A DNA stretch of 64,000 nucleotides from an uncultured Clostridia bacterium (lineage in GTDB: Bacteria > Bacillota > Clostridia > TANB77 > SIG350): NCBI GenBank assembly GCA_944393615.1, contig CALYAQ010000011.1, positions 16,661 through 80,660 of the forward strand. Direction: 5' to 3'. The notes under the pieces were generated by a model. That model made no database searches, was not told where the DNA came from, and saw only the letters and a list, made by a program, of their open reading frames with translations. Both the position numbers and the translations under genes were made by a program. Below, piece after piece: positions 4,056 to 48,506 of this stretch. Position 1 is the stretch's first letter. Each line of letters opens with the position of its first letter.

Positions 4056-4130
4056 TGGTGACGCATACGAGAATTGAACTCGTGCCTCAGCCTTGAGAGG
4101 GCCACGTCTTAGCCACTTGACTAATGCGCC
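4056..4130 (-). tRNA. tRNA-Glu family; a hand fold gives anticodon CUC
   Basis: The minus-strand sequence GGCGCAUUAGUCAAGUGGCUAAGACGUGGCCCUCUCAAGGCUGAGGCACGAGUUCAAUUCUCGUAUGCGUCACCA folds as a cloverleaf. It has a 7-bp acceptor stem, a GTTCAATT T-loop and an encoded CCA. Its D-arm and overall sequence parallel Bacillus tRNA-Glu. The anticodon loop is CUCUCAA. Confidence 0.7.
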
Positions 4131-4242
4131 ATAATGTATATATATTTTATCATGTAATAAAACATTTTTCAATAGGTACTAGCACTTTTTTTGTTTTAAA
4201 GAATAATATATAGCATAATATTACTTAAAAGGAGGAACAAAT

Positions 4243-4404
4243 ATGTTTAATGGATTTGGAGGAAGTGACACAATCTTATGGTTTGTAATATTATTTTTAC
4301 TACTTTTTTGGAATAACGGTAGATGTTGTGATAACAACTGTTGTTGTCCTGGTAACAATAACAATCATTGTTGCTGTGCGTGCAACAACAATAGAACCGA
4401 TTAA
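4243..4404 (+). CDS. Tiny (53 aa) Cys/Asn-rich membrane protein, YjcZ/'tiny TM' sporulation-type family
   Basis: It has a strong RBS (AAAGGAGGAACAAAT-ATG). Sequence: MFNGFGGSDTILWFVILFLLLFWNNGRCCDNNCCCPGNNNNHCCCACNNNRTD. It was not in the ORF track because it is under the length cutoff. Confidence 0.55.
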   Translation: MFNGFGGSDTILWFVILFLLLFWNNGRCCDNNCCCPGNNNNHCCCACNNNRTD

Positions 4405-4428
4405 CCAAAATTGAAAGGAGGAATTTAC

Positions 4429-4581
4429 ATGTCTGAAAGATGCGGATGCGGATGTGGATGTGGCGGATGCGGTTGCGGATTTGGTGGATGCGAATGGATT
4501 TGGATAATAATCTTAATCATTATCATTTGCTGTTGCTGTGGAAACGGTGGTTTCTTTGGTAACAATAACTGTTGCTGCTAA
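4429..4581 (+). CDS. Tiny (50 aa) Cys/Gly-rich membrane protein, a tandem paralog of the preceding ORF
   Basis: RBS GAAAGGAGGAATTTAC-ATG. Sequence: MSERCGCGCGCGGCGCGFGGCEWIWIIILIIIICCCCGNGGFFGNNNCCC. Confidence 0.55.
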   Translation: MSERCGCGCGCGGCGCGFGGCEWIWIIILIIIICCCCGNGGFFGNNNCCC

Positions 4582-4642
4582 AATCTCAAAATAACATATT
4601 GCGAAAACAAAAATATACAAAGTAAATATCTTTGTATATTTT

Positions 4643-5473
4643 TTATTTTTCTAATTCTTCTGTTATAAATTCACTAACTTGTTCTTCTGTTAAATTTGTA
4701 GATATTTTTCCGTCTACAGCTATTGATATTTTTCCAGTTTCTTCTGATACAACAACAGCTATACAATCCGCCACTTCGCTAATACCAATACAAGCTCTAT
4801 GTCTTGTTCCAAATTCTGACCTTAAATCATTTCTCTTTGTTAATGGTAATATACATGCTCCCGCCTTTATTTTATTTCCTTCTATTATAATTGCGCCGTC
4901 ATGTAATGGTGTATTAGGTTCAAATATATTTGTTATTAACTCTTGAGTTACATTTGCATCTAGCACAACTCCTGTTTGGATATACTCTCCTAACTTTACA
5001 TCTCTTGTAATAACCATTAATGCTCCTATTTTATTTTTTGAAAAATATTCACATGTTTTTGAAATTATACTAACCACGTTTTGACTAGTTGAATTTTCTT
5101 TTTCTAAATTAAATAATCTTGCTATTCTTTTATTTTTACCTATATCTCCAAGAGCTTTTCTAAGTTCTGGTTGGAATACAATCATTATCAATACTACTCC
5201 GTATGTCATAATTGATTTTAGAATAAAATTAAGTATATATAGTTGGCACCAACCACTAATAACTGTTATTAGTATTAGTATTAATATACCCTTTACTAAT
5301 TGTATAGCATTAGTATTTTTAATTAATTCGTATGCTTTTTTAGCTAAATATATAACCAATACAATATCTATACAAAGTAATATTATATGAATAGGATTAC
5401 TTTGCAACCACTGCAAATATGATTCAATATTTCTATAATATATATCATTTATTACCATTTGTAACTTTTCCAT
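4643..5473 (-). CDS. cdaA: Diadenylate cyclase CdaA (DisA_N domain with three N-terminal TM helices)
   Basis: 'DGAIIIEGNKIKAGACILPLT' and 'RHRACIGISEVADCIAVVVSEETG' match the DAC-domain signature. Confidence 0.85.
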   Translation of the reverse strand: MEKLQMVINDIYYRNIESYLQWLQSNPIHIILLCIDIVLVIYLAKKAYELIKNTNAIQLVKGILILILITVISGWCQLYILNFILKSIMTYGVVLIMIVFQPELRKALGDIGKNKRIARLFNLEKENSTSQNVVSIISKTCEYFSKNKIGALMVITRDVKLGEYIQTGVVLDANVTQELITNIFEPNTPLHDGAIIIEGNKIKAGACILPLTKRNDLRSEFGTRHRACIGISEVADCIAVVVSEETGKISIAVDGKISTNLTEEQVSEFITEELEK

Positions 5474-5482
5474 ACTCTACTC

Positions 5483-5590
5483 CTATGCAAAGAAATACAT
5501 AAACATTGTTATAGCTACAGGTATAACAAATACAGCCGCTATAAATATTGCCATTGCTCTTACTAAATACTTTTTTGTACGTTCTGACAT
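5483..5590 (-). CDS. Candidate 35-aa hydrophobic micro-protein upstream of cdaA
   Basis: Minus-strand RBS AAAAGGAGGAACATTAA-ATG. Sequence: MSERTKKYLVRAMAIFIAAVFVIPVAITMFMYFFA. It ends 7 nt before the cdaA start. Confidence 0.3.
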   Translation of the reverse strand: MSERTKKYLVRAMAIFIAAVFVIPVAITMFMYFFA

Positions 5591-13774: not shown

Positions 13775-14326
13775 GTGATAAAAATGTTATATACACATAA
13801 AGAATTATTAAATAAATATAAATCAAATTATCAAATTGAAAAAGCGGTTAAAGAAAAGAAAATTTTTAAAATTGAAAAAGGTATTTATGCAGACAAAAAG
13901 AATCTTCATTACTTAGAATTACTTGTTAAAAAATACCCGAAAGCAATAATTACTGGTGAATCTGCTTATTATTATCATCATCTAACAGATGTGATACCAG
14001 ATAGAATATATTTAGCAACAAATAGAACTGCTGTAAGAATAAATAATAATAAAATTAAGCAAATTTCAGCAAGTGATAATCTATTTGAATTAGGAAAAGA
14101 AACTTTAGTTTATGAAGGTGTAACCATCAATATTTATAATAAAGAAAGAATGTTAATTGATTTAACTAGAAACAAAAAACAAATAGGATATGATTTATAT
14201 AAAGAAATAATATCTAATTATAGAAAATTAGCAAATTCATTAGATACACAAAAGATAGAAGAATATTTACAATACTTTGTAAATGGAGATAAATTTTTTG
14301 AAATAATACAAGATGAGGTGTTTTAA
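13775..14326 (+). CDS. abiEi: AbiEi-family antitoxin/transcriptional regulator (type IV toxin-antitoxin)
   Basis: 183 aa, with an N-terminal wHTH-like region ending in '..IEKGIYA'. It overlaps the downstream NTase gene by 1 nt (TAATG). Confidence 0.6.
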   Translation: MIKMLYTHKELLNKYKSNYQIEKAVKEKKIFKIEKGIYADKKNLHYLELLVKKYPKAIITGESAYYYHHLTDVIPDRIYLATNRTAVRINNNKIKQISASDNLFELGKETLVYEGVTINIYNKERMLIDLTRNKKQIGYDLYKEIISNYRKLANSLDTQKIEEYLQYFVNGDKFFEIIQDEVF

Positions 14327-15153
14327 TGGATATATATGAATTAGTAAACAAATATATATATGCAGGTTATTCTGAAAATGATGCTATTCCAAAAGTTGCT
14401 CAAGACATAGTTCTACTTAAAATTGGAAATAGCAAATATAATAAGAATATTACTGTAAAAGGTGGAGTTGTAATGCACAACATTTCTAAAGATATGCGTC
14501 GTGCAACTCGAGATATGGACATTGATTTTATAAAGTATTCTTTGGAAGATAAATCAATACTTAATTTTATAAAAGAATTAAATAATGTAGATGATGATAT
14601 AAAAATAAAAGTTACCGGAAAAATCGAAGCTTTACATCATCAAGATTACAATGGGAAAAGAATTTATATACAACTAACTGACAGTAATAAGTATTCAATA
14701 AGTTCTAAACTAGATATTGGAGTACATAAGTATTTTGATATAGAACAAGATGAGTATTATTTTGATTTAAATATAATTGATGAAAGTGTACGTCTTCTTA
14801 TAAATTCAAAGGAACAAATAATTGTTGAAAAATTAAAATCATTATTAAAATTTGGTATTACATCTACAAGATTTAAAGATATATTTGATTTTTATTATTT
14901 AATAAATAACGAAGATTTAAGTACGGACAAGCTAGTAAAATACATAGATATATTAATTTTTCAAGATGAAGACATGAGAGAAAATGAATTAAAAGATATA
15001 CATATTAGATTAACCAATATATTAAATAATCATAGATTTCAATCAAGAATTAACACAGCCAATAACAACTGGTTGGAAATACCTATAACAAATGTTATTA
15101 ATAATGTTTTGGAATATTTTGAAGATTTAATAAAAAAGCTACAAACAATTTAG
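14326..15153 (+). CDS. abiEii: AbiEii/AbiGii-family nucleotidyltransferase toxin (DUF1814)
   Basis: 'VKGGVVMHNISKDMRRATRDMDIDF' matches the AbiEii pattern KGGTAL...R.SEDLDF. The gene is translationally coupled to the upstream ORF. Confidence 0.65.
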   Translation: MDIYELVNKYIYAGYSENDAIPKVAQDIVLLKIGNSKYNKNITVKGGVVMHNISKDMRRATRDMDIDFIKYSLEDKSILNFIKELNNVDDDIKIKVTGKIEALHHQDYNGKRIYIQLTDSNKYSISSKLDIGVHKYFDIEQDEYYFDLNIIDESVRLLINSKEQIIVEKLKSLLKFGITSTRFKDIFDFYYLINNEDLSTDKLVKYIDILIFQDEDMRENELKDIHIRLTNILNNHRFQSRINTANNNWLEIPITNVINNVLEYFEDLIKKLQTI

Positions 15154-31210: not shown

Positions 31211-31762
31211 CTAACTAATATAATTATTTACAATATTGTTATTTTTTAAACATATACTTTTTAAGATTGCTTTTACCACTGTATTAGATAAATTTATTAT
31301 ATTGTATAGTTTTACATTTCTTAATTCTTCGAAATTTTGGTTGCTATTTAAACCAACAACAGCATTTATATATAGATCTCCTACTTTCTTGTTTTTCTTA
31401 TTTAACGCACTACCAGGTATAATTCCTCCTTTTCCTACTACAATCTTATTAATCATTTCTTCTTGTCCTAATGCTGAATCAATTACAACTATATACGGTT
31501 CTTTATATTTCTTTTTAATTTTTTCTACATATTGTTTTAAATTTGTACCATTCACAGTATTTTTTAAATCTCCATATACAATATATTGATTTTGTTTTAA
31601 AAAATGTCCTACTATTGGTCCAAATGCATCTCCTATTATTTTGTCTGTTCCTATGCATAAAAAAATAACTTCTTTTTTGGTTTTTTCTATAACTTTTTCA
31701 TTACAATATCTAAGACAATCAGTTAAGCCGTTTATATCATTATTTTCAAAAAAAAATTGCAT
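31211..31762 (-). CDS. yyaC: Sporulation protein YyaC (putative spore protease, DUF1256)
   Basis: 'FLCIGTDKIIGDAFGPIVG' matches the YyaC signature. YyaC conventionally neighbours parB near oriC. Confidence 0.7.
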   Translation of the reverse strand: MQFFFENNDINGLTDCLRYCNEKVIEKTKKEVIFLCIGTDKIIGDAFGPIVGHFLKQNQYIVYGDLKNTVNGTNLKQYVEKIKKKYKEPYIVVIDSALGQEEMINKIVVGKGGIIPGSALNKKNKKVGDLYINAVVGLNSNQNFEELRNVKLYNIINLSNTVVKAILKSICLKNNNIVNNYIS

Positions 31763-33425: not shown

Positions 33426-33965
33426 TTATATTGTTGCAAAATATGTACCAGCATTTCTTTTTGCTAAATCTATAGCTTGTACCTCTTCTGTTGATAATGT
33501 ATATGTTGAACTTCCTTTATTTACAGGTTTTGCATATGTTGCTGAACCTTCTCTTGAATAAATACCATTTATAACAACTCCAGAGTCTTCATAATCTAAT
33601 AAAGCTATTGCAAAACACAAATCGCTACCAGTATCTTCAAAAGCATTATATCTAACCATACCTACTTTTTGTATGCATTTAACTATTTTTTCATCTAATC
33701 TATTACAATAATCTAATACTTCCGTATTTTTTTTATCTACTTTTTCAACAGTTTCTATATAACCTCTTATCATAGTTTCTAAATTTGTACCATTTCCTAG
33801 TTTTCTCATTAGAGAATTATATTTCTTTATTGTTTTTTTTGTTTTAATATTATTAGCTATTGCCATAATAGTTACTAAAATAATTAGTATAAATACTATT
33901 ACATTAAAATATTCTTGGTTTGTTATATTAACAATTCCCATATATAAATTATTTAAAAACTCCAT
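33426..33965 (-). CDS. DUF4446-like membrane protein commonly found downstream of parB
   Basis: N-terminal TM helix. 179 aa. Lies directly after parB. Confidence 0.5.
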   Translation of the reverse strand: MEFLNNLYMGIVNITNQEYFNVIVFILIILVTIMAIANNIKTKKTIKKYNSLMRKLGNGTNLETMIRGYIETVEKVDKKNTEVLDYCNRLDEKIVKCIQKVGMVRYNAFEDTGSDLCFAIALLDYEDSGVVINGIYSREGSATYAKPVNKGSSTYTLSTEEVQAIDLAKRNAGTYFATI

Positions 33966-33967
33966 TT

Positions 33968-34858
33968 TTACCCCCTATTTATAATATCTAATATTCTATC
34001 TAATTCGTCGTTAGAATAATATTCAACTATTATTTTTCCTCTATTTGAATTATTATGTTTTATTTGTACTTTAGTTTGAAAGAAATTTTTAAATTTTTCT
34101 TCAACATCATTTATCCATATATCATTTTCTTTTTCTTTTTTAATTTTTTTATTATTTGTTTTTTCTTCTTTTAACGATTTTATATTTTCTTCTAGTTGCC
34201 TAACACTTAAACCTTCTATAACAACTTTTTGTGCTAATAAGTTTTGTAATTCTGGGTTTTGTATAGATACAAGTATTTTACAGTGTCCTTCAGTTAATTC
34301 ATCATTTTTTATATATTCTTTTATTTTATCATCTAAATTTAGAATTCTCAATGAATTAGCGATAGAGCTTCTACTTTTTCCCAAATTACTTGCCAATTGT
34401 TCTTGAGTTAAATTATATTTATCCATAATATATTTATATGCTTGTGCTTGTTCTAATGTATTTAAATCTTCTCTTTGTATATTTTCAATTAAAGATATTT
34501 CACTTTTCGTTTGCTCGTCATATTCTTTTACTACAACTGGAACATTTTGCAAACCTATTGATTTAGCTGCTCTTAATCTTCTTTCTCCTGCAATTAAATC
34601 ATAATTGTCATTATTTTTTGTTACAACCAACGGTTGCACTATACCATATTTTTTTATAGATTGTGCCAATTCATCTAATTGCTCTTGTCCAAACACTTTT
34701 CTAGGCTGTTCCTCATTTGTTTTTATGTCATTTACATTTAAAAAAACTATTTCATTGTTATTTATTTTTGTCTCTAGTTGTACTGTTTTTTCAACAACAT
34801 TTTTTGCTGAAGGTTGGAATAGTGCATCTAATCCTCTTCCTAATCCCATTTTAGCCAT
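33968..34858 (-). CDS. parB: ParB/Spo0J chromosome partitioning protein
   Basis: 'GLGRGLDALF', 'LIAGERRLRAAK' ParB box, and an HTH region 'QEQLASNLGKSRSSIANSLR'. Confidence 0.9.
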   Translation of the reverse strand: MAKMGLGRGLDALFQPSAKNVVEKTVQLETKINNNEIVFLNVNDIKTNEEQPRKVFGQEQLDELAQSIKKYGIVQPLVVTKNNDNYDLIAGERRLRAAKSIGLQNVPVVVKEYDEQTKSEISLIENIQREDLNTLEQAQAYKYIMDKYNLTQEQLASNLGKSRSSIANSLRILNLDDKIKEYIKNDELTEGHCKILVSIQNPELQNLLAQKVVIEGLSVRQLEENIKSLKEEKTNNKKIKKEKENDIWINDVEEKFKNFFQTKVQIKHNNSNRGKIIVEYYSNDELDRILDIINRG

Positions 34859-35628
34859 TATCTTTTCACCTCGTTATTTCTTATTATTTCATTTGCCAAA
34901 CTAGTATAACACACTGCACCTTTGGATCTTTTATCATATAAAGATATTGGTAATCCATGACTTGGTGCTTCACTTAATCTAACGTTTCTAGGTATAATTG
35001 TTGTATAAACTTTTGTATTAAAATACCTTTTTACTTCTTCCACAACTTGCATTGATAAATTAGTTCTAGAATCATACATCGTTAGTACAACTCCTTCTAT
35101 ATCTAAGTTTTTATTTAAATGTTTTTGTACTAAATCAATTGTACTCATTAATTGTCCTAATCCTTCTAATGCATAATATTCACATTGTATTGGAACTAAA
35201 ACTGAATCAGCTGCTGTAAATGCATTTAACGTTATTAGCCCTAAAGAAGGAGGGCAATCTAATATTATATAATCGTAATCATATCTTATTTTTTCTATTG
35301 CCATTTTTAATCTGTTTTCTCTTGATATTACAGATACCAATTCAACTTCTGCTCCTGCTAAATTTATATTAGAAGGACAAACTTCTAAATTAGGTAAATC
35401 TGTAGCTTGTAGGGTATCTTCTATATCTTCATTATTTATAATTACATCATATACCGATTTGGGTACTTGTTTATTTGCTCCTAAACCACTTGTAGCATTT
35501 CCCTGTGGATCTATATCTATAATTAAAGTCTTTTTTCCTGCTTGAGCTAGGCAAGCACTTAAATTTACTGCTGTTGTTGTTTTTCCAACTCCGCCTTTTT
35601 GATTTGCAATTGCAATAATCTTACTCAT
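34858..35628 (-). CDS. parA: ParA/Soj ATPase
   Basis: Deviant Walker A 'ANQKGGVGKTTTAVNLSA'. 256 aa. Overlaps the parB start. Confidence 0.9.
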   Translation of the reverse strand: MSKIIAIANQKGGVGKTTTAVNLSACLAQAGKKTLIIDIDPQGNATSGLGANKQVPKSVYDVIINNEDIEDTLQATDLPNLEVCPSNINLAGAEVELVSVISRENRLKMAIEKIRYDYDYIILDCPPSLGLITLNAFTAADSVLVPIQCEYYALEGLGQLMSTIDLVQKHLNKNLDIEGVVLTMYDSRTNLSMQVVEEVKRYFNTKVYTTIIPRNVRLSEAPSHGLPISLYDKRSKGAVCYTSLANEIIRNNEVKR

Positions 35629-35854
35629 ATTTCCCTCCTATTGTTACTTTTATTTCTACTTTTTGTTACACAAATATATTATCATAAAACTATTATTAAT
35701 TAAATAGTTTTTATAAAAAAATGTGTTTTTTTATAAAATTCTTTTTTCCGTAAGATATAGTATTTTTGTTTTATGTAAACTTATTCTTTTTTGTATACAT
35801 AATATTAAAACTAATTAAGTATTGATAACAAACCGATTCTATATTTTTTATTAA

Positions 35855-36068
35855 TGTTCCACGTGGAACATTTCTTTTTTTAATTATTTGTTTTCTATTT
35901 AATTATTTCTTTATTATTAATTAATTATCTAATTATTTTCTTATTTTTATTTTTGTTCCACGTGGAACATTTCTTTTTTTATTTATTTATTTTCCAATTA
36001 ATTATTTCTTTATTATTAATTAATTATCTAATTATCTTCTTATTTTTATTTTTGTTCCACGTGGAACA
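35855..36068. repeat. Tandem ~99-bp AT-rich direct repeat (2.5 units), each unit carrying the perfect palindrome TGTTCCACGTGGAACA (parS-like). Copies at 35855, 35954 and 36053.
   Basis: Three exact 16-mers spaced exactly 99 bp apart, with near-identical intervening sequence. Located between the parA start and the rsmG stop. Confidence 0.85.
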
Positions 36069-36071
36069 TTT

Positions 36072-36782
36072 CTATTTTAATGGTTTTTCGCTAGGTGTAC
36101 CTGCTTTTCTAGGATATTTGCTTGGCGTTGTTTTTACTTTTCTAATTATTACTAAATTATATTCTATTTCTATACTTGGTAATTTATATTTAATTATTTC
36201 TTCTATTTTACCTCCTAGTATATCTATTGCTGATTTACTTTCTTCTATTTCTTCTAATACATTAGGTCCCTTCATACAAATGATAATACCATTTTTTTTA
36301 ACAAATGGTATTAGATATTCTACTAAAGTTCCCATATTAGCTACAGCTCTTGATATAGCTATATCAAATTTCTCTCTATACTCTTTATTTTGTCCAAAAT
36401 CTTCTGCCCTACCATGAATTATATTTATCTTTTTTAATTCTAACTTTTTTGCAATATCATTTAAATATACTAGTTTTTTATTAATGCTATCTAATAATGT
36501 CATTTCACAATTTTCAAAGAATATTTTTATAGGTATACCTGGAAAGCCTGCACCAGTTCCCACATCTATTATTTTTGAATTTTCTTTTATATATTTGCAT
36601 GGTAATAATGAATCTATAAAATGTTTTATATATATATCTTTATCATCTGTTATTCTTGTTAAATTAATTTTTTTATTCCATTCTATTAATTCTAATTTAA
36701 CTTCTTCAAATTGTTTTAATTGTTTATTATTTAATTCTATATTAACATCTTTCAATAAATTATTAAAATAATTATTTTCCAT
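36072..36782 (-). CDS. rsmG: 16S rRNA (guanine527-N7)-methyltransferase RsmG (GidB)
   Basis: SAM-binding '[11 protein letters not shown]'. 236 aa. Overlaps the mnmG end. Confidence 0.9.
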
Positions 36783-38673
36783 TGCTTTTTCTCCCTCTTA
36801 ATTGCTCTAAATATATTAATAGCACAGATATATCAGCTGGTGAAACTCCTGATATTCTAGATGCTTGACCTAAATTTAATGGTTTGAATTTATTTAATTT
36901 TTGCCTAGCTTCTAAACTTATACCTTTTATTTCTTCATAATTTATATCTATTGGTAATTGCTTTTTTTCTAAATTTCTAAATTTATTTACTTGTTCTTGT
37001 TGTATTTTTATATATCCCTCATATTTCACTTCTATTTCCACTTCTTCACATATACTTTTTTCAATATTAGGTCTATCTTCGTCTATCTCTTTTAATATTT
37101 CATAACTTAATTCTGTTCTTTTTAGTAATTCTGACAGCTTTATACCTGTTTCTAATTCTGAAGAATTGTATTTTCTTAAAAATGCTTGTACTTTTTCTGT
37201 TGGTTTTATATTTACTTTTTTAATTCTATTAATTTCTTTTTCTATTAATTCTTTTTTATTTATAAATTTTTGATATCTTTCTTTTGAAATAAGACCAATC
37301 TTATATCCTTTTTCAGTAAGCCTTATATCTGCATTATCTTGCCTTAATAATAATCTATATTCAGCTCTAGATGTCATCATTCTGTATGGCTCATTAGTTC
37401 CTTTTGTTACTAAATCGTCAATTAAAACACCTATATATGCCTCTGCTCTATCCAATACCAAAGGTTCTTCGTTTTTTATTTTTAAAGATGCATTTATTCC
37501 TGCCATTAACCCCTGTGCTGCTGCTTCTTCATATCCAGAACTACCATTTATTTGCCCTGCAAAATATAGCCCTGAAATTTTCTTATGCTCTAATGTTGGA
37601 TATAGCATTGTTGAGTCTATACAATCATATTCAATAGCATATGCTGGTCTCATTATTTCACAATTTTCCAATCCTGGTATAGATTTATATATTTCTAATT
37701 GCACTTCTTCCGGTAAACTAGATGACATACCTTGTATATACATTTCCTCCGTATTTTCACCCATAGGTTCTATAAATATTTGATGTCTTTCTTTATCTGC
37801 AAATCTCATGATTTTATCCTCTATAGAAGGACAATACCTTGGCCCTATACCTTCAATAACACCAGAATAAAGTGGTGATTTATGTATATTTTTTCTAATA
37901 ATTTCATGTGTTTTTGGTGTTGTATATGTTAAATAGCATGAATATTGTTCTTTTTTATATTCTTTATTTTCAAATGAAAACGGTATTATATTTTTATCTC
38001 CCTTTTGTTCTTCCATTTTTGAAAAATCAATACTTCTTTTATTAACTCTTGCTGGGGTACCTGTTTTAAATCTTCTTAACTCTACACCAATTTCTTTTAA
38101 AGATTGTGATAATTTATTTGCCGGAAATACACCGTCAGGTCCAGATTCATAATTAACATCTCCAATAAATATTTTACCTTTTAAATATGTACCTGTTGCT
38201 AATATTAAAGCTTTTGTTTCATATCTAGCACCTATTTGTGTAGTTACAGCTTTAATTTTATTATCTTCAACTTCTATCTCTACAATTTCTGCTTGTTTAA
38301 CATCTAAATTTTCTTGTAATTCTAATACATGTTTCATATCTTGATGATATTTTTTTCTATCAGCTTGTACTCTTAATGAAAAAACCGCCGGTCCTTTAGA
38401 TGTATTTAACATTCTAGATTGAAGTGTTGATTTATCAGCATTTTTCCCCATTTCTCCACCTAGTGCATCTATTTCTCTAACCAAATGACCTTTTGAAGTC
38501 CCTCCTATATTAGGATTACAAGGCATATTTGCTATACATTCTAAGCTTATAGAAAATATAACTGTCTTTAAACCCATTCTACTACATGCTAAAGCTGCTT
38601 CACATCCAGCATGTCCTGCTCCTATAATTGCTACATCATATTTTTTTCCATCGTATTTCATTTTTACCTCCAT
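36772..38673 (-). CDS. mnmG: tRNA uridine-5-carboxymethylaminomethyl modification enzyme MnmG (GidA)
   Basis: FAD-binding '[14 protein letters not shown]'. 633 aa. Confidence 0.95.
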
Positions 38674-38758
38674 TATTCCATATAGAACATTATATATTTT
38701 ACTCCTTTTTTAATTGTTTTACAATATTTATTGTTCATATTTCTTATTTTTATATTAT

Positions 38759-39232
38759 TGTTCCACGTGGAACATTTTGCTTTTTTTATTTTATTTATTA
38801 TTTTTCTATTTTTTTATTTAATCATTTTTTATTTATTAATTTGTTTATTTTCTGTTTTATATTATTGTTCCACGTGGAACATTTTACTTTTTTTATTTTA
38901 CTTATTATTTTTCTATTATTTTATTTAATCATTTTTTATTTATTAATTTGTTTATTTACTATTTTATATTATTGTTCCACGTGGAACATTTTGCTTTTTT
39001 TATTTTATTTATTATTTTTCTATTTTTTTATTTAATCATTTTTTATTTATTAATTTGTTTATTTACTGTTTTATATTATTGTTCCACGTGGAACATTTTA
39101 CTTTTTTATTTTATTTATTATTTTTCTATTTTTTATTTAATCATTTTTTATTTATTAATTTGTTTATTTACTATTTTATATTATTTATTTATTTTTTCTT
39201 GCTTGCTAATAAAAAATGTTCCACGTGGAACA
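38759..39232. repeat. Tandem ~107-bp AT-rich direct repeat (4 units + 1), each unit carrying the same palindrome TGTTCCACGTGGAACA. Copies at 38759, 38866, 38973, 39080 and 39217.
   Basis: Five exact 16-mers. The first four are spaced exactly 107 bp apart. Lies between the mnmG start and the mnmE stop. It generates the spurious 'LLFHVEHF'-containing ORFs in the track. Confidence 0.85.
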
Positions 39233-39236
39233 TTTT

Positions 39237-40604
39237 TTATTTTCCTAAACAAAACTTAGAAAATATCTTATTTATTACTTCTTCACTAACAGTTTTACCT
39301 GTAATCTCACCTAATAATTGTAATAAATCCATTATTTTGACAGAAACAATGTCAATTGGCGTTTTTTTGCTTACATCAAGGTTTATATCGTCTATTTTAT
39401 TTAAAGCTGTAGAAACTATGTTTTTGTGCCTCGAATTTGTTAAGAGTGTTTCATTTTCATTTATTATACTATCTAGATTGCACATTTCATATATTTCTTT
39501 TTCTAATTTTTCTAATCCTATATTTTCTTTTGCCGATATTTCTACAATCACTTTATTATCAAAAATCTGTTTTATTTCCTCTTTTTTTAATTTATTTTTT
39601 AAATCTATTTTATTCAATATTATTATTATATTATTGTTATTAACATTCTTAATTATATCATAATCATCTTGTGTGAAATCTTCTGAATAGTCAAAAGCAA
39701 CCAATACTATTTCCGCTGTTTTCGATATATCTATAGATTTTTCAATTCCAATTTTTTCCACTATGTTTTCACTTTTTCTTATGCCTGCTGTATCTATTAT
39801 TTTTACAGGTATTCCTTTTATATTAATGTATTCTTCTATTGTATCTCTTGTAGTTCCTGCAATATCTGTAACAATAGCTCTTTCTTCTCTTAATAACATA
39901 TTTAATATAGATGATTTTCCCACATTTGGTTTTCCAATAATAGCTATACTAATGCCTTCTCTCAATATTTTTCCTGCATCAAAACTCTTTTCTAGTTTTT
40001 GTAGTTTTTCTCTTATACTCTCTATACTATTAGTTAATTTTTGGTTTGATACTTCTTCCACATCATATTCAGGATAATCAATATTAGCCTCTATATCAGA
40101 TATTATATCTAATATTTCATTTTCTATTTCTTTTATTTTTTTAGATAAAACACCTTCTAATTGTTTTTGCGATTCCTTTAAACTCTTTTCTGTTTTTGAA
40201 TTTATAATATCTACAACAGCTTCAGCTTGTGTTAAATCAATTCTTCCATTTAAAAATGCTCTTTTAGTAAATTCTCCAGGTTCAGCTAATCTTGCACCGT
40301 TCTTTAGCACAATACTTAATATTTTATTTAATATAACAGTTCCACCATGGCAATTTATTTCACAAACATTTTCTCTTGTAAATGAAATTGGTTTTATAAA
40401 AAATGAAACTAAAACTTCATCTATTATTTCTTTATCATCTATAATATGTCCATAGCGTATTTTTTGATGTTCTATTTTAAAGCTTCCCTTTTTAGGTTTA
40501 AATATTTTTTCTATTATTTCAAAAGTTTTTTCTCCACTTATTCTTATAATTCCTACACTTGATATTGCTGATGATGTTACTATTGCTGCTATTGTATCTT
40601 CCAT
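39237..40604 (-). CDS. mnmE: tRNA modification GTPase MnmE (TrmE)
   Basis: G-domain motifs 'GKPNVGKSS' and 'DTAG', and a C-terminal 'CLGK' tail. Confidence 0.95.
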   Translation of the reverse strand: MEDTIAAIVTSSAISSVGIIRISGEKTFEIIEKIFKPKKGSFKIEHQKIRYGHIIDDKEIIDEVLVSFFIKPISFTRENVCEINCHGGTVILNKILSIVLKNGARLAEPGEFTKRAFLNGRIDLTQAEAVVDIINSKTEKSLKESQKQLEGVLSKKIKEIENEILDIISDIEANIDYPEYDVEEVSNQKLTNSIESIREKLQKLEKSFDAGKILREGISIAIIGKPNVGKSSILNMLLREERAIVTDIAGTTRDTIEEYINIKGIPVKIIDTAGIRKSENIVEKIGIEKSIDISKTAEIVLVAFDYSEDFTQDDYDIIKNVNNNNIIIILNKIDLKNKLKKEEIKQIFDNKVIVEISAKENIGLEKLEKEIYEMCNLDSIINENETLLTNSRHKNIVSTALNKIDDINLDVSKKTPIDIVSVKIMDLLQLLGEITGKTVSEEVINKIFSKFCLGK

Positions 40605-40646
40605 TTTTACATCTCCTTTAGAAAAAAAGTAACTTTGCAGTTACTT

Positions 40647-41342
40647 TTATTTTAATTTTACTACAACTTTTCTATATGGTTCTTCACCAACACTCAATGT
40701 TTCGATTTTATCATTTTCCTGAAGTGTTAAATGTATAATTTTTCTTTCATAAGCAACCATAGGTTCTAAAGTTATACTTTTTCCTGTTCTTATTACGCTT
40801 TGTGCCACTTTGTTAGCTAAATCAACTAGTATTTTCTTTCTTTTTTCTCTATAATTTTCAATATCCAATTGTATTTTTATATTACTATTCATTTTATTAT
40901 TTATAACTAATGTAAGTATTGATTGTAGAGCGTCCAACACTTCACCTCTATACCCTATTAAAATTTTAGCATCTTTGCTTTTTATCTCAATCTTTAACAT
41001 ATTTTCATTAAAATCAATTGTATAATTATATTCAATTTTTAATGAAGAAAAAAGGCTATTTAAAAAATCTATTGATATTTTCTTTATCTCTTCTTTTTCT
41101 AAATCATTAAATTCTACTTTTCTATTAATTTTTAAATCATTGTTTTGTTTTTCTATTTTTGAATTATCTATAGCTTTTGCTTTTATAATTACATATTTAG
41201 GTGCTAAAATACTAAATAATGTTTTATTTGTTTCTTCTATAATTTCATAAGAAATATTTTCTTTAGTTGTTTTTAATTCTTTTTGAGCTATTGTTAATGC
41301 TTCTTCTAAATTTTTTCCTTTAATTTCTACTTCATTTATCAT
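40647..41342 (-). CDS. jag: Jag/KhpB RNA-binding protein (KH + R3H domains)
   Basis: 231 aa with a C-terminal R3H-like 'LEPMVAYERKIIHLTLQ'. Confidence 0.85.
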   Translation of the reverse strand: MINEVEIKGKNLEEALTIAQKELKTTKENISYEIIEETNKTLFSILAPKYVIIKAKAIDNSKIEKQNNDLKINRKVEFNDLEKEEIKKISIDFLNSLFSSLKIEYNYTIDFNENMLKIEIKSKDAKILIGYRGEVLDALQSILTLVINNKMNSNIKIQLDIENYREKRKKILVDLANKVAQSVIRTGKSITLEPMVAYERKIIHLTLQENDKIETLSVGEEPYRKVVVKLK

Positions 41343-42159
41343 TTACAACCACCCCATTTTCAATCGTTTCTTGCTTTTTGAAATATATCATCATACCAAT
41401 AGAAATTATAGTTTGTATTAAATTACTAAACAACCAATATAACCCTAATCCTAGTGGCACTTGATATGCTATATAACCAGACATAATCGGTAAAATATAA
41501 TTTAACATATTCATCGATTTTTGTGTTTCTTGATATTGAGGATTATCTTTATTAAAACTGTCATTCATTCTTTTAGTTATTACAACTGATAACATTGTAA
41601 TTATAACTGATAACACCGGTATTATTAATAATGCATAATTTGATGGATTTTTTGCAGGTATATCACCTAAATTAATTCCTAAAAAGTTTAAGTTTATTCC
41701 TAATTCATCAGATTTTTTGATTATTTCTATTTCATCATAACTATACATACCATTAGTATTTTCTATTTGTAATTCTTGTTTTATAGTTTGTATTTGCTCT
41801 TGATCCATTTTAACCATGTGGGTTAATGGTTTTGAAACTATAAAAAACATTCCTAATATTATAGGTATTTGTATTAGTGCTATTAAACAACCTGTAAAAG
41901 GATTAAAACCTTCTTCCTTTTGAAATTTAGCTATTTCTTGAGCATACAACTCTTTATTATCTTTGTATTTCTCTTGTAGTTCTAATAATTTAGGTTGTAC
42001 TTTAGCCATATTTTTAATTGATTTTTGCTGTTTTATATTTAATGGTAATAAACAAAGTTTTATTATTATAGTAAATAATATAATTGCTATACCAAAATTA
42101 CCACATAATTCATATAAAAAATTCAAAACATAACCTAACAAATTTGCTATAGTATCCAT
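41332..42159 (-). CDS. yidC: Membrane protein insertase YidC/OxaA (SpoIIIJ-like)
   Basis: 275 aa with five TM helices and 'KQQKSIKNMAKVQPKLLELQEKYKD'. Confidence 0.9.
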   Translation of the reverse strand: MDTIANLLGYVLNFLYELCGNFGIAIILFTIIIKLCLLPLNIKQQKSIKNMAKVQPKLLELQEKYKDNKELYAQEIAKFQKEEGFNPFTGCLIALIQIPIILGMFFIVSKPLTHMVKMDQEQIQTIKQELQIENTNGMYSYDEIEIIKKSDELGINLNFLGINLGDIPAKNPSNYALLIIPVLSVIITMLSVVITKRMNDSFNKDNPQYQETQKSMNMLNYILPIMSGYIAYQVPLGLGLYWLFSNLIQTIISIGMMIYFKKQETIENGVVVNDK

Positions 42160-42173
42160 TCTATTCTCCTTTA

Positions 42174-42386
42174 TTATACTAGTGGGTCATATCCACCTTT
42201 ACAAAATGGATTACACCTTATTATTCTTTTTAAACCTTTTATACACCCTTTAAATGCTCCATATTTTTCAATTGCTTGTTTTGTATATTCAGAACAAGTT
42301 GGATAAAATCTACATTGATTTCCTAAAAAAGGTGAAAAAATTCCTTTATATAAATAAATTAAAAAAATGCAAATTCTTTTCATCAT
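42174..42386 (-). CDS. yidD: Membrane protein insertion efficiency factor YidD
   Basis: 70 aa. 'YKGIFSPFLGNQCRFYPTCSEY' is the canonical YidD motif. Confidence 0.85.
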   Translation of the reverse strand: MMKRICIFLIYLYKGIFSPFLGNQCRFYPTCSEYTKQAIEKYGAFKGCIKGLKRIIRCNPFCKGGYDPLV

Positions 42387-42730
42387 AATAACATTTCTCT
42401 TTCTTTAAATATTTTTTGCATATCATCATATACCACATCACATTTAATATTTTTGGTGGTTTCTTTTGACTTCCACATAATTAAAATGTTATATCCTTTT
42501 TTTATTTTACTTTCTAAATCAGAATATGCTTGTCTTAACAATCTTCTTATTCTATTACGAAAAACACTATTTCCAGCTTTTTTACTAACAATAAAACAAA
42601 TTCTATTTATTCCTTGTAGTTTTTCAGATTTTTTTAAATATATAGTTAAATATTTTCCCCTTGTCCATTTTCCTTTTGCAAGTAAATATTTTACTTCAAA
42701 ATTCTTTTTTATAGTTATTGTATTTTTCAT
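42383..42730 (-). CDS. rnpA: Ribonuclease P protein component
   Basis: 115 aa, basic, with 'RNRIRRLLRQAY' (RNR motif). Confidence 0.85.
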   Translation of the reverse strand: MKNTITIKKNFEVKYLLAKGKWTRGKYLTIYLKKSEKLQGINRICFIVSKKAGNSVFRNRIRRLLRQAYSDLESKIKKGYNILIMWKSKETTKNIKCDVVYDDMQKIFKEREMLL

Positions 42731-42778
42731 AAAATCCTCTCATTGCAATTAAAGACTACATTATATTGCAGTCTTTAA

Positions 42779-42913
42779 TTATGCGCAAATTTCTTTTCTT
42801 CCTTTTGCTTTCCTTCTTTTTAAAACATTTCTTCCTGATGCTGTTTTCATTCTTTTTCTAAAACCATGTTCTTTTGCTCTTTGGATTTTCTTTGGTTGAT
42901 ATGTTCTTTTCAT
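42779..42913 (-). CDS. rpmH: 50S ribosomal protein L34
   Basis: Minus-strand translation [44 protein letters not shown], with a GGAGG RBS. Not in the ORF track because it is under the cutoff. A hairpin lies between rpmH and rnpA. Confidence 0.85.
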
Positions 42914-42954
42914 TTTGCACCTCCTAATTTTTTATTATATATATTGATGCTTAC

Positions 42955-43446
42955 TTAAATATTGTTACTAATTTTTATAACGTATATTCTTTCAACAACT
43001 TTATCATTATTTTTTTCAATAATAATTTTATAATCATTATCGTCTATAATTTTAGTATATTCTGTACTATTAGTTATTCTAGCATTAGTCATCATTATAA
43101 TACTTGCATTTTCTTTAGTTGCATTTGTTTCTTCAATAGCATTCTCACTTATATATACTATAATATTAGTTAAATTTTGTGTACTAATATCTAATAACAT
43201 TTGTTTAAAAATAGAACCTTTTATTATACCTTCGTACTTATCTAAAATATTTTTTTCTATTTTTTCATCTGTATTATTATTTTCAACATTATCACTAGTA
43301 CCTGTTCCACTTATATATTGTGGATTTAAGTATATTATTTCGTTTTTTAATAAAATTATTAAACTTGCACTTATCAATGCTATCATAATAAATATCGTAA
43401 CAACAACAGATAGTACATTTCCTCTTTTTAAATTAATATACTCCAT
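42955..43446 (-). CDS. Hypothetical membrane-anchored protein (163 aa) between rpmH and oriC
   Basis: N-terminal TM helix. N/I/K-rich. No family recognised. Confidence 0.4.
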   Translation of the reverse strand: MEYINLKRGNVLSVVVTIFIMIALISASLIILLKNEIIYLNPQYISGTGTSDNVENNNTDEKIEKNILDKYEGIIKGSIFKQMLLDISTQNLTNIIVYISENAIEETNATKENASIIMMTNARITNSTEYTKIIDDNDYKIIIEKNNDKVVERIYVIKISNNI

Positions 43447-43571
43447 TTAATCACTTTCCAATCTATTTTTTATATAAATGCTTATAAATTATATCTTAAA
43501 AGTGTTTAATTGTCAATCAAATTACATAATTTTTTTATGTTTTTTCAATATTTTTTAAACAAAATTAAGAC

Positions 43572-43769
43572 TTATCCACAGGTTTTTCAAAATTATGCAC
43601 ATAGTTTTCCACAGTTTTTTTTGTTTTTTTTAAAAAAGTCTTGATTATTTGATAGTATTTTGATATATTGTGTAATAGCTTATTTAGGGAAATAGGCTTT
43701 ACATAATAATAAGATAAAAAAATCACTCTAAATTTTATGGTGATTATAAAAATAAAAACATGTGGATAA
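43572..43769. promoter_or_regulatory. oriC upstream DnaA-box cluster: TTATCCACA (43572), TTATGCACA (43593), TTTTCCACA (43606) and TGTGGATAA (43761, immediately upstream of the dnaA RBS)
   Basis: Perfect and 1-mismatch matches to the DnaA box consensus TTATCCACA. Confidence 0.8.
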
Positions 43770-43779
43770 GGTGAATTTT

Positions 43780-45099
43780 ATGAAACAATTTGATGAAACT
43801 TGGGATAAAGTAATTGATATGATAAAAGAAGAAATACCTGTTATTAGTCTTGAAACATGGATTAAACCTTTAGTTTTGTTAGAAGTTACAGATACAAAAT
43901 TAATTTTTAAAGCTAGCACAGATTATCATAAAACATTAGTTGAAACTAGATATATTGACTTGATTAGAACAGCTTTAAAATATGTTACTTCTAAAGATTA
44001 CGATGTATCAATTATTTTAGACGACGAAACAAAAGAAGAAAATAATAAGATAATTGCAAATATGTATGGTTATTCAAGCACATTTTTAAATCCTAAATAC
44101 ACATTTGAAAATTTTGTTATAGGTAATAATTCTAGATTTGCTCATGCTGCTTGTATAGCTTCAGCAGAAGCACCTACAGCCGCATATAACCCATTATTCA
44201 TATATGGGGGAGTTGGTTTAGGAAAGACACATTTAATGCATGCTATTGGTAATTTCAGATTGAAAAATAACCCTAATACAAAAGTTCTATATGTTACATC
44301 CGAAAGATTTCTTAATGATTTAATTAACGCTATAAGCGAAAACAAAAACGAGGAATTTAGGTTAAAATATCGTAATATAGACCTTTTACTAATTGATGAT
44401 ATTCAATTTATTGCTAAAAAAGAAAGATTTCAAGAAGAATTTTTTAATACTTTTAACGCCCTATATGAACAAGGTAAACAAATAGTATTAACTAGTGATA
44501 GACCACCAAAAGATATTAATCCTTTGGAAGAAAGATTAAAATCAAGATTTGAATGGGGACTTATTGCGGATATTGGTATGCCAGATTACGAAACGCGTTT
44601 AGCAATTTTGAAAAAAAAGGTTCAAAATGATAAACTTGTAGTTGATGATAATATATTAGAACATATAGCATCTAAAATAGACACTAATATTAGGGAATTA
44701 GAGGGTACATTAAACAAAATTGTTGCTGAAGCATCCTTAACTAATAAACCAATTACTTTAGAAAGTGCATTAAGAGCAATTAGTCACATGTCATCTTCAA
44801 ACAATAAAACAATAACAGCCTCAACAATAAAAGAATGTGTTTCTAGCTATTTTGATATATCAGTTACAGATTTAACAAATCAAAGTAGAGTAGCTGCAAA
44901 CACTTTACCAAGGCAAATCGCAATGTACTTATGTAGAGATGTTATCCAAATGTCTTTTCCCAAAATTAGTGCTGAATTTGGCAGAAAAGATCACACCACA
45001 GCAATGCATGCTTACGAAAAAATTTCAGAAGCAATAAAAGGAAATGGTTCTTTAAAAGAAACTGTGGATAACATCAAAGAATTGTGGATAACTAAATAA
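43780..45099 (+). CDS. dnaA: Chromosomal replication initiator DnaA. Start at ATG 43780 ('MKQFDETW') with an AAGGTG RBS.
   Basis: AAA+ 'GGVGLGKTHLMHAIG', and a C-terminal DNA-binding 'TLPRQIAMYLCRDV..SFPKISAEFGRKDHTTAMHA'. Confidence 0.95.
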   Translation: MKQFDETWDKVIDMIKEEIPVISLETWIKPLVLLEVTDTKLIFKASTDYHKTLVETRYIDLIRTALKYVTSKDYDVSIILDDETKEENNKIIANMYGYSSTFLNPKYTFENFVIGNNSRFAHAACIASAEAPTAAYNPLFIYGGVGLGKTHLMHAIGNFRLKNNPNTKVLYVTSERFLNDLINAISENKNEEFRLKYRNIDLLLIDDIQFIAKKERFQEEFFNTFNALYEQGKQIVLTSDRPPKDINPLEERLKSRFEWGLIADIGMPDYETRLAILKKKVQNDKLVVDDNILEHIASKIDTNIRELEGTLNKIVAEASLTNKPITLESALRAISHMSSSNNKTITASTIKECVSSYFDISVTDLTNQSRVAANTLPRQIAMYLCRDVIQMSFPKISAEFGRKDHTTAMHAYEKISEAIKGNGSLKETVDNIKELWITK

Positions 45100-45200
45100 G
45101 TCTTGATTTCCGTAGTTTGAAGTGCATATTTTACATAAAAAAAAGTTATGGACAAAGTGTATTAAATATTCTAACCTTACTTACGGAATACTTTGATATA

Positions 45201-45357
45201 GTTATCAACAGGTTGTTGCGAGTTTACTGTGGATAACTTGTGGATAACTTTAAAAAATTTTCAAAAAAAAATTATACACATTTTATACACAGACTTATAC
45301 ACAGATTTATACACAAGATAAAGTTTAGTATTTACTAGGGAAAATAGGGTTTTCCAC
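45201..45357. promoter_or_regulatory. oriC downstream DnaA-box cluster: TTATCAACA; 2x TGTGGATAA (45227, 45238); 4x TTATACACA phased ~11-12 bp apart (45271, 45282, 45294, 45306); TTTTCCACA (45349). An A-rich candidate unwinding element lies at ~45247-45273.
   Basis: Read directly from the sequence. This is the bipartite arrangement flanking dnaA that is typical of Firmicutes oriC. Confidence 0.8.
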
Positions 45358-45416
45358 AGAATCCACAACACTTACTATTATTATTACTAAATAAATATAA
45401 ATATTTAAAAGGAGTT

Positions 45417-46532
45417 TTGGAAATGAAAATTATATGTGAAAAAGAAAATTTAATAAAAGGATTAAACAATGTATTAAAAGTAAGTAGTTCAAAAACAACA
45501 ATGCCTATATTACAAGGAATATTATTGCAAACTAACAATAATGAATTAAAGTTAACCACTTATGATTTAGAAATAGGTATAGAAACTATTATACAATGCG
45601 AAATTTCAGAACAAGGAGCAATTGTTGTAGATAGTAGAATGTTTTCGGAAATAATAAAAAAATTACCTGATAGTCAAATCAGAATAGAATTATTAGAAAA
45701 TAATTTATTAGAAATAGAATGCTTAGATAGCTTATATAAATTATCAACAATGAATCCTGAAGAATTTCCAGAGTTACCAAAAATAGATATTGAAAAATCT
45801 ATATCTATTAGTGATTTTAAATTAAAAAATATGATTAAAAAAACTATTTTTGCTATTAGTTTAGATGAAACTAAACCTATATTTACAGGTTGTTTGTTAG
45901 AAGTATTAAAAGAAAAAGTTAATTTAGTAGCTATTGATGGTTTTAGAATGGCATTTACATCTGATATGATAGTAAATAACTGTGAACCATTTAAAGCTGT
46001 TATACCAGGAAAAACATTAGGAGAAATAAATAAAATTCTTGCTGAAGAAGGAATAGAAGTAAAAATAGGCGTTGCTAAAAATCAAATATTATTTGAAATG
46101 GATAACTGCAAGGTTATTTCTAGATTACTAGAAGGAGAATTTATAAATTATGAAAATGTTATACCAAAAACAAGAGAAACAAGAATAAAAGTAAAAACTC
46201 AAGAAATAATAACTGTTTTAGAAAGGGCATCTTTAGTTAGCTTTTCAATGGAAGAAAAAAGCAAAAAATTTCCTACTAAATTTCATATAGAGGTGGGAAA
46301 ATTAACTTTAACATGTAGTGGTAGTTTAGGAAACTCGAAAGAAGAAATGTATCTAGAAACAGAAGGTAAAGAGTTGGAAATAGGATTTAATCATAAATAC
46401 TTACTTGATGCTCTAAAGGCTTGTGAGGATGAAGAAGTATATATTGATTTTGCAACTAATATAGCACCTTGCTTAATAAAGCCTATTGAAAACGAAACAT
46501 ATTTATTTATGGTTTTACCTGTTAGATTATGA
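45417..46532 (+). CDS. dnaN: DNA polymerase III beta subunit (sliding clamp)
   Basis: 371 aa. Three-domain beta-clamp with 'LTTYDLEIGIE'. Confidence 0.95.
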   Translation: MEMKIICEKENLIKGLNNVLKVSSSKTTMPILQGILLQTNNNELKLTTYDLEIGIETIIQCEISEQGAIVVDSRMFSEIIKKLPDSQIRIELLENNLLEIECLDSLYKLSTMNPEEFPELPKIDIEKSISISDFKLKNMIKKTIFAISLDETKPIFTGCLLEVLKEKVNLVAIDGFRMAFTSDMIVNNCEPFKAVIPGKTLGEINKILAEEGIEVKIGVAKNQILFEMDNCKVISRLLEGEFINYENVIPKTRETRIKVKTQEIITVLERASLVSFSMEEKSKKFPTKFHIEVGKLTLTCSGSLGNSKEEMYLETEGKELEIGFNHKYLLDALKACEDEEVYIDFATNIAPCLIKPIENETYLFMVLPVRL

Positions 46533-46540
46533 TAAAATAA

Positions 46541-48472
<1,932 letters not shown>

Positions 48473-48475
48473 AAT

Positions 48476-48506
48476 AAAAAGGCTTCAAATGAAGTCTTTT
48501 TATTTT
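48476..48506. terminator. Bidirectional terminator between gyrB and the convergent SLH gene
   Basis: AAAAAGGCTTCAAATGAAGTCTTTTTATTTT. Confidence 0.55.

Follow-up and report, generated by a model that had tools for sequence, protein, structure and literature searches.

What are the two tiny tandem genes that lie between a tRNA-Glu gene and cdaA near one end of a 64,000-nucleotide stretch of DNA (contig CALYAQ010000011.1, hereafter the window) from an uncultured Clostridia bacterium? An initial annotation, made from the letters of the sequence, described at positions 4243-4581 a tandem pair of short, Cys-, Gly- and Asn-rich membrane proteins that resemble the sporulation-associated YjcZ family. 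In the analysis reported here, the two open reading frames (ORFs), ORF1 and ORF2, are found to be real genes under purifying selection that represent two conserved protein types, A and B, which travel together in Clostridia. With a probability of roughly 0.55, a figure that applies jointly to the whole explanation, they form a two-gene operon with a promoter at 4184-4210, two ribosome-binding sites (RBSs) and a terminator at 4609-4643, and encode undescribed, tiny hydrophobic proteins that are expressed late in sporulation in the mother cell and carry cross-linkable tails.

The coordinates and sequences of both genes agree with the initial annotation. ORF1 (MFNGFGGSDTILWFVILFLLLFWNNGRCCDNNCCCPGNNNNHCCCACNNNRTD, 53 aa) extends from 4243 to 4404 and ORF2 (MSERCGCGCGCGGCGCGFGGCEWIWIIILIIIICCCCGNGGFFGNNNCCC, 50 aa) from its ATG at 4429 to 4581, both on the forward strand and separated by 24 nt between the stop of the one and the start of the other. 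Each start codon is preceded, at a distance of 7 nt, by the AGGAGG that had been claimed as a near-perfect RBS (4230-4235 and 4416-4421, both on the forward strand). ORF1, the type A protein, has the core DTILWFVILFLLLFWNNG and a Cys/Asn-rich C-terminal tail, and ORF2, the type B protein, has the core GFGGCEWIWIIILIIIICCCCGNGG between an N-terminal tail of CG repeats and a short C-terminal tail rich in Cys. Cys makes up 14 of 50 residues in ORF2 (28%) and 9 of 53 in ORF1 (17%), or 22% combined, so that the earlier estimate of about 25% suits the former but overstates the latter; Cys, Gly, and Asn together account for 62% and 49%, respectively. The two are the most Cys-dense reading frames of the window, which has a G+C content of 26%, and no further copies of either were found elsewhere in it. 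Basic residues are scarce (one Arg and no Lys in ORF2, two Arg in ORF1). A single hydrophobic stretch is present in each protein, with a best 19-residue Kyte-Doolittle mean of 1.91 in ORF1 and 2.47 in ORF2, and the AlphaFold2 model of ORF2, in which only the helix is informative (mean pLDDT 49), consists of one helix at residues 22-37 with disordered tails; hydropathy and model thus bear out the single hydrophobic helix proposed before. Reading frames are also open on the opposite strand over both genes (53 aa at 4247-4408 and 46 aa at 4425-4565); these were set aside as a mirror of the repetitive TGY, GGN, and AAY codons.

Evidence that both ORFs are maintained comes from two metagenomic contigs, L001 and L002, which have the same gene order as the window (tRNA-Glu, the pair in tandem, convergent cdaA, a tiny ORF, and pheT). 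In a three-way DNA alignment, conservation covers the start codons, RBSs and hydrophobic cores; divergence is seen in the intergenic DNA and in the Cys/Asn tail of ORF1. The RBS of ORF1 is kept in both contigs, and TTGAAAGGAGG at the RBS of ORF2 is invariant across the three loci. By contrast, the tail of ORF1 differs in length and composition even between L001 and L002, and the ORF1 counterpart in L002 is just 32 aa long. Compared with L002, the type B core shows 11 synonymous and 0-1 non-synonymous changes and the type A core 7 synonymous and 2-3 non-synonymous changes, against an expectation of about 18-20% synonymous for random change. Both cores are under purifying selection. Loss of the reading frames or RBSs in relatives had been named in the initial annotation as what would speak against it; frames, start codons, and RBSs are all retained in L001 and L002.

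Such genes are easily lost from catalogs. Gene calls on L001-L008 omitted one partner of the pair, and the exact window proteins are absent from a collection of 15 billion proteins. A scan of metagenomes with the type A alignment gave at least 600 pattern matches, of which tblastn retained only 9, a loss that is probably due to the shortness of the peptides. A genome search with CdaA as the query returned a best match of 44% identity, and the tiny genes were found at none of its 25 loci.

Profile searches place the two proteins in a larger family. The pair is defined here as a type A core ([ND]D[TE][IL]LWF[IV]ILFLLLF) situated upstream, on the same strand, of a type B core (GFG(G/D)..W[IV]II[IL]....CCCG); ORF1 carries the former and ORF2 the latter, in this order. 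The type A profile retrieved 235 relatives of 32-78 aa with an invariant LWF.ILF.L.F, and the type B profile, whose consensus is MPENRGCGCGFGFGDDCIWIIIVLILICCCCGGN..GCC, gave 78 representative clusters at E<=1e-3 when run against 1.84 billion proteins. All sources of type A homologues with organism names are Clostridia (Acetivibrio, Petroclostridium, and Pseudoclostridium), and their products are named "hypothetical protein". Alignment of the type A profile with the type B profile over 24 columns (91.8% probability, E = 7.5e-7) suggests that A and B may be distantly paralogous, although hydrophobic helices inflate such scores.

At least eight distinct loci of Clostridia, whose neighbouring genes are unrelated, have the order A-B. 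It is seen between tRNA-Glu and cdaA in the window, L001, and L002, between a TRAM/methyltransferase gene and dnaE in L003-L008 and L037, beside V-ATPase genes in L038-L040 (which carry the homologue P0058, named at NCBI for Pseudoclostridium thermosuccinogenes), and in L053. Three tiny genes in a row occur in L041 (3868-4320), L044 (1302-1710), and L054 (2036-2641); the arrangement is A'-A-B in L041-L043 and L044 and A'-B-A in L054, and in the core of the additional type A copy ILFF replaces ILWF. Because the flanking genes share nothing between loci, the pair itself is the conserved unit. The description as a tandem pair was therefore right but understated, since two distinct conserved types, A then B, travel together. 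In L034-L036, two B units are fused into one protein of 86 aa with two helices, and no A gene is present.

With regard to the tails, the composition changes while the helix stays nearly the same. CG-, CC-, and N-rich tails are found in the lineage of the window, GYGYGY-rich ones in Petroclostridium-like members, and acidic ones in others. Type A homologues have a median of 6% Cys and type B representatives one of 14.5%, and the only near-invariant Cys element is the CCC(C)G that immediately follows the B helix. Judged from these sequences, the extreme Cys content is best regarded as a variable decoration of the tails.

Membership in a known family was examined next to these profiles. Neither ORF has an NCBIfam or Pfam match at E<=10, and 15 of the 16 homologues scanned have no NCBIfam match; the remaining one, P0010, reaches 17 bits against a provisional "hypothetical protein" NCBIfam model with a cutoff of 71 bits. 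Nine homologues that were also run against Pfam gave only insignificant matches to prion families, far below the cutoff. TIGR01732, the YjcZ model (26 positions, cutoff 21.35 bits), was present in the searched library and accepted as positive controls two YjcZ-like sequences (48.6 and 50.5 bits), but it has no match at E<=10 to ORF1, ORF2, or the 16 homologues. In hhalign comparisons, in which one such accepted stand-in took the place of a genuine YjcZ sequence, type A and type B reached probabilities of 24.5% and 5.2%. YjcZ/TIGR01732 membership was ruled out on these two grounds. The resemblance to YjcZ in the initial annotation thus stands for the architecture, and extends to a sigma-K-type promoter, but does not amount to membership. 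In the literature searched, the core sequence was not found, and the phrase "tiny transmembrane" is absent from the 10 top-ranked papers listed. The family appears to be undescribed: tiny hydrophobic sporulation proteins as a kind are known from YjcZ, whereas the heterotypic pairing, the Cys chemistry and the distribution in Clostridia appear new.

The timing of expression is suggested by the DNA upstream of ORF1, which the initial annotation had singled out for a promoter check. In C. difficile, sigma-K promoters have AC at -35 and CATATAAT at -10, and sigma-E promoters have ATA at -35 and a near-identical -10 element (PMC3789822). The sigma-K consensus used here, CATA---TA with a spacer of 16-17 nt, was taken from PMC3789822 and PMC517825. 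In the window, the proposed sigma-K-type promoter comprises AC at 4184-4185 (forward strand), located 16 nt 5' of the -10 element AATAATATA at 4202-4210 (forward strand), which fits [C/A]ATAnTAT[A/G] with A rather than C as its first base. A block of 26 nt (AGAATAATATATAGCATAATATTACT, 4200-4225, forward strand) that spans the -10 element and the probable transcription start is invariant in the window, L001, and L002, and its flanks vary; the GCAC at -35 is likewise identical in the three, and the surrounding spacer diverges.

The aligned upstream regions of independent loci share the same two-part motif, (GT)AAC followed after 16-17 nt by [C/A]ATAnTAT[A/G]. In its strict form, it occurs in 13 of the 14 loci on which it had been refined, at most 150 nt before the first tiny gene, against a background of 0.008 per 150 nt in 450 kb of fetched DNA; it is also present in L053, L054, L055, and L056. 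The published B. subtilis-type consensus AC-N16/17-CATAnnnTA, which was defined beforehand, is present in only 3 of 14 upstream regions, which nevertheless greatly exceeds its background of 0.0077. Among 18 aligned loci, 17 have AC at 16-17 nt, usually as GTAAC, and 17 have the -10 element 30-51 nt from the start codon. In L034, where the G+C content is higher, a canonical AC-N16-CATATGATA is present that fits the published consensus. Altogether, AC-N16/17-[C/A]ATAnnnT[A/G] precedes the first tiny gene in 18 of 19 independent loci, 17 in the strict form plus L034, and the check suggested earlier thus led to a sigma-K-type promoter that is kept across the family. The weight of this evidence lies in the conservation across loci. 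The match to the motif suggests that the promoter is of the mother-cell, sigma-K type and that transcription would depend on sigma-K.

Other promoter assignments fit less well. A sigma-A promoter was set aside for its poor -35 elements, judged by eye, and promoter-like sites are not enriched (8 versus 5.3). For sigma-G or sigma-F with GAATA as the -35 element, no conserved -10 element is found 15-18 nt downstream, and half of the loci have CATA instead of GAATA. No ATA at -35, as for sigma-E, and no AGGA-type -35 element, as for sigma-H, was seen by eye. A second CATAATAT at 4214-4221 was also considered as the -10 element, but neither AC nor ATA lies at the proper distance from it, and the family alignment fixes the upstream element.

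On the downstream side, positions 4609-4643 form a predicted hairpin whose 14-bp stem is flanked by T-runs on both sides. Its folding energy of -12.3 kcal/mol compares with a shuffle mean of -2.7 (z = -5.85), and none of 200 shuffles was as stable; the consensus terminator scan missed it since its stem is AT-rich. Because the hairpin is located between the stop codons of ORF2 and the convergent cdaA and has T-runs on either side, it is probably a bidirectional terminator shared by the two. At the other end, a tRNA-Glu gene (anticodon CTC, 4056-4130, reverse strand) lies directly upstream of the pair promoter and diverges from it, an arrangement that is kept in L001 and L002.

Taken as a late-sporulation operon, the pair would work in the following way. 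RNA polymerase with sigma-K would transcribe the operon in the mother cell at a late stage of sporulation. The conserved helices (A, ILWFIILFLLLFW; B, WIWIIILIIII) would place the two proteins in the outer forespore or mother-cell membrane or in a hydrophobic coat matrix, where A and B, since they are co-inherited, would probably act as a hetero-oligomer. Their disordered low-complexity tails would serve as a cross-linkable matrix, with disulfides formed from CGCG and CCCC in this lineage and with Gly/Tyr tails in other members, and would harden once the mother cell lyses and thiols oxidise. We thus infer a location in the membrane or coat, an interaction between A and B and disulfide cross-linking, and regard the two proteins as probable components of the spore envelope that have escaped description. 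A more specific version, which we consider unlikely though worth stating, holds that in anaerobic spore formers the invariant helices bring A and B together as a hetero-oligomeric array of the outer forespore membrane, and that the juxtamembrane CCCC and CGCG tracts are reduced in the mother-cell cytoplasm and oxidise to an intermolecular disulfide lattice upon lysis and entry of oxygen. Such an array would be an oxygen-triggered layer for hardening or anchoring the coat, with no described counterpart.

Beyond the promoter, the context offers a few signs of sporulation. A YyaC spore protease is encoded at 31211-31762 on the reverse strand (TIGR02841, 123.8 bits versus a cutoff of 84.9, equivalog), and it points to a lineage that may form endospores; the scan of about 45 window proteins gave no second clear sporulation marker. 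In L034, L035, and L036, the fused double B gene is situated directly 3' of a gene for a 571-aa Csp-like Peptidase_S8 protein (L034 3188-5261), and in L034 this protease gene is preceded by CATACAAT, a mother-cell-type -10 element. The tiny-gene cluster of L041 adjoins a DUF421/DUF4363 operon; one DUF421 gene is regulated by sigma-G in C. difficile (PMC3789822). The protease and DUF421 neighbours are weak contextual hints.

Several points weigh against the sporulation reading. Many type A genes occur without B (L045-L052, L055, and L056), especially in the subfamily with acidic tails, which means that complex formation between A and B cannot be a strict requirement. At 13-15 residues, the hydrophobic runs are short for proteins that span a membrane. 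The capacity of the window organism to sporulate is predicted from a single gene. As for the promoter, the enrichment of the strict motif is inflated by its refinement on the loci that it scores, and the AT-rich window by itself is not enriched (4 matches versus 2.8 expected). About half of the -10 elements, including that of the window, start with A instead of the usually conserved C. Moreover, the -10 elements of sigma-E and sigma-K are alike, and the call of sigma-K hangs on the two bases AC.

Among the other explanations that were weighed, the idea that the two frames are open by chance in low-complexity, TG-rich DNA, or mark a non-coding element with no protein product, would account for their small size, their repetitive composition and the openness of both strands. 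It is excluded for practical purposes by the strong skew between synonymous and non-synonymous changes together with the conserved start codons and RBSs, and hundreds of homologues in which the protein core is invariant while the DNA diverges, as well as the gene order kept across unrelated contexts, contradict it further; of all the explanations, it has the smallest probability. Hardly more credit can be given to precursors of ribosomally synthesized and post-translationally modified peptides (RiPPs), by which thioether or sactipeptide-like peptides or bacteriocins would arise from the Cys-rich tracts. Clostridial peptides of 40-55 aa that are rich in Cys do recall SCIFF and other radical-SAM substrates, and a radical-SAM gene is present in L034; the latter, however, encodes a MiaB-like UPF0004/TRAM_2 enzyme on the other strand. 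No match to SCIFF or another NCBIfam precursor model was found, no maturase, protease, or exporter is conserved beside the genes in about 19 loci, and the best-conserved part is the hydrophobic helix rather than a leader or core peptide, all of which makes this origin very improbable.

Two functional alternatives deserve somewhat more attention, even though both are unlikely. The proteins could be membrane-anchored buffers of thiols or metals, similar to metallothioneins, whose CXC and CCCC tracts bind Cu(I), Zn, Cd, or an Fe-S-type cluster at the membrane surface of vegetative cells or spores, with the helix as a mere anchor. This would suit the CGCGCGCGGCGCG and CCCC tracts of ORF2 and the near-invariant CCC(C)G beside the helix of type B, and metal-related genes are indeed found nearby, namely an HMA-domain protein in L053, a Csp copper storage protein and an ArsR-type regulator in L054, an Fe-dependent repressor in L034, and a cation-efflux (CDF) gene 6 kb away in the window. 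These neighbours vary by locus, however, and belong to other operons or to the opposite strand. Most type A tails are poor in Cys (median 6%), with switches to Gly/Tyr-rich or acidic forms, some type B proteins, such as that of P. thermosuccinogenes, have only 2-3 Cys, and no metallothionein or other metal-binding Pfam or NCBIfam model matches at E<=10 the proteins, which carry a hydrophobic helix besides. The promoter is of the sporulation type, not a metal-regulated one, which would still be compatible with metal binding inside the spore. Since the tails switch between Cys-rich and Gly/Tyr-rich forms while the helix is invariant, and no enzyme or transporter partner is conserved, a structural matrix is favoured over a specific metal site. 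A shade less likely still are membrane-active peptides of the holin or type I toxin kind, which would permeabilise the mother-cell membrane to time lysis and spore release, or act as the toxin of a selfish module. The size, the single hydrophobic helix and the two-gene layout recall type I toxins and holin/antiholin pairs, the mother cell of B. subtilis lyses at the time of sigma-K activity, which would match this role, and the loci shift between genomic contexts. On the other hand, no relatives were found in viral contigs, no lysin gene adjoins any locus, and tails rich in Cys, Gly, and Tyr are foreign to known holins and type I toxins; a tblastn search of plasmids with a YjcZ-like sequence and the type A homologue P0037 gave no match, probably because of the low-complexity filter. 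The RBSs are strong and accessible, unlike what a type I toxin would call for, and no antisense promoter is conserved; one sigma-70-like antisense site exists at 4589-4562 (9 of 12 matches), yet sites of this kind show no enrichment over shuffled sequence. No rival explains the conserved promoter and the A-B pairing together as well as late-sporulation, mother-cell-expressed envelope proteins do.

The wider setting of the pair is that of a replication origin. The origin region occupies about 33900-48500 of the window, and the GC skew changes sign at about 43-44 kb; dnaA (43762-45099), dnaN, and gyrB lie on the forward strand, yidC, jag, mnmE, mnmG, rsmG, parA, and parB on the reverse strand, and gyrA is also present. 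Some 39 kb separate the pair from the origin, and since nearly all of its neighbours lie on the other strand, it is transcribed head-on to replication. Next to cdaA, another tiny gene was noticed, a 35-aa single-helix ORF (MSERTKKYLVRAMAIFIAAVFVIPVAITMFMYFFA) with the RBS AAAGGAGG, located at 5483-5590 on the reverse strand of the window, at 1763-1870 in L001 and at 2749-2853 in L002. It ends 9 nt before the start of cdaA, and its position is the same in both syntenic contigs; it probably encodes a tiny membrane protein and shares a transcript with the diadenylate cyclase gene. Two further features lie apart from the pair. A gene for an AbiEii-type nucleotidyltransferase toxin (14326-15153, forward strand) abuts a 183-aa ORF that has no Pfam match (13775-14326), and the two (13775-15153) are predicted to be a type IV toxin-antitoxin or abortive-infection pair. 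At 50363-56636 (forward strand), a 184-aa ORF with weak similarity to the N-terminus of a VirB4-like conjugation ATPase is followed by several large ORFs, with a G+C content of 21% at 52-56 kb, and this segment may be the remnant of a conjugative element beside the origin.

If the proposed role is correct, annotation has passed over a pair of spore-envelope proteins that is widespread in Clostridia and has no Pfam or NCBIfam model to represent it. Tiny proteins of this kind are easily overlooked by gene callers, and their few Lys and Arg residues probably make standard tryptic proteomics blind to them. The pair would provide a compact model for how Cys-rich or Gly/Tyr-rich low-complexity tails on a membrane helix contribute to coat assembly, resistance, and surface properties, and its conserved promoter would serve as a phylogenetic footprint of a mother-cell promoter across uncultured Clostridia.

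The closest known parallel is YjcZ. Like the pair, YjcZ proteins are shorter than about 60 aa and have a variable, Gly-rich N-terminal stretch followed by one conserved, very hydrophobic helix; as in the A/B family, several copies per genome are often present. B. subtilis yjcZ has been assigned to the sigma-K regulon (PMC517825), and the A/B genes likewise have sigma-K-type promoter motifs. The cores differ, ILWFIILFLLLFW or WIWIIIL..CCCG in the A/B family compared with FALIVVLFILLIIVG in YjcZ, and unlike YjcZ the A/B family has a conserved heterotypic A-B gene pair and Cys-rich tails, and it was seen only in Clostridia. If the proposed role holds, the pair would give Clostridia an equivalent of the tiny YjcZ-type sporulation proteins, which are themselves poorly understood.

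Other spore proteins share single features with the pair. SpoVM and CmpA, of 26-37 aa, are made in the mother cell and act at the forespore surface (PMC10730256). Like the pair, whose own mother-cell expression is predicted from its promoter motif, they are tiny, but both depend on sigma-E, are not Cys-rich and have no sequence similarity to it, and the helix of SpoVM is amphipathic rather than hydrophobic. With regard to Cys content, CotY and CotZ of B. subtilis and CdeC and CdeM of C. difficile are late mother-cell products whose high Cys content is thought to cross-link the outer spore layers. They are much larger and soluble, however, with no hydrophobic helix and no sequence similarity to the pair, and the Pfam and NCBIfam models of these families match neither ORF. 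Outside bacteria, the keratin-associated proteins of hair fall into high-sulfur and high-Gly/Tyr classes. These eukaryotic proteins are unrelated and have no membrane helix, and the parallel is one of analogy only; still, the same alternation between Cys-rich and Gly/Tyr-rich composition is seen in the A and B tails, and it suggests that the tails may have a role in matrix cross-linking.

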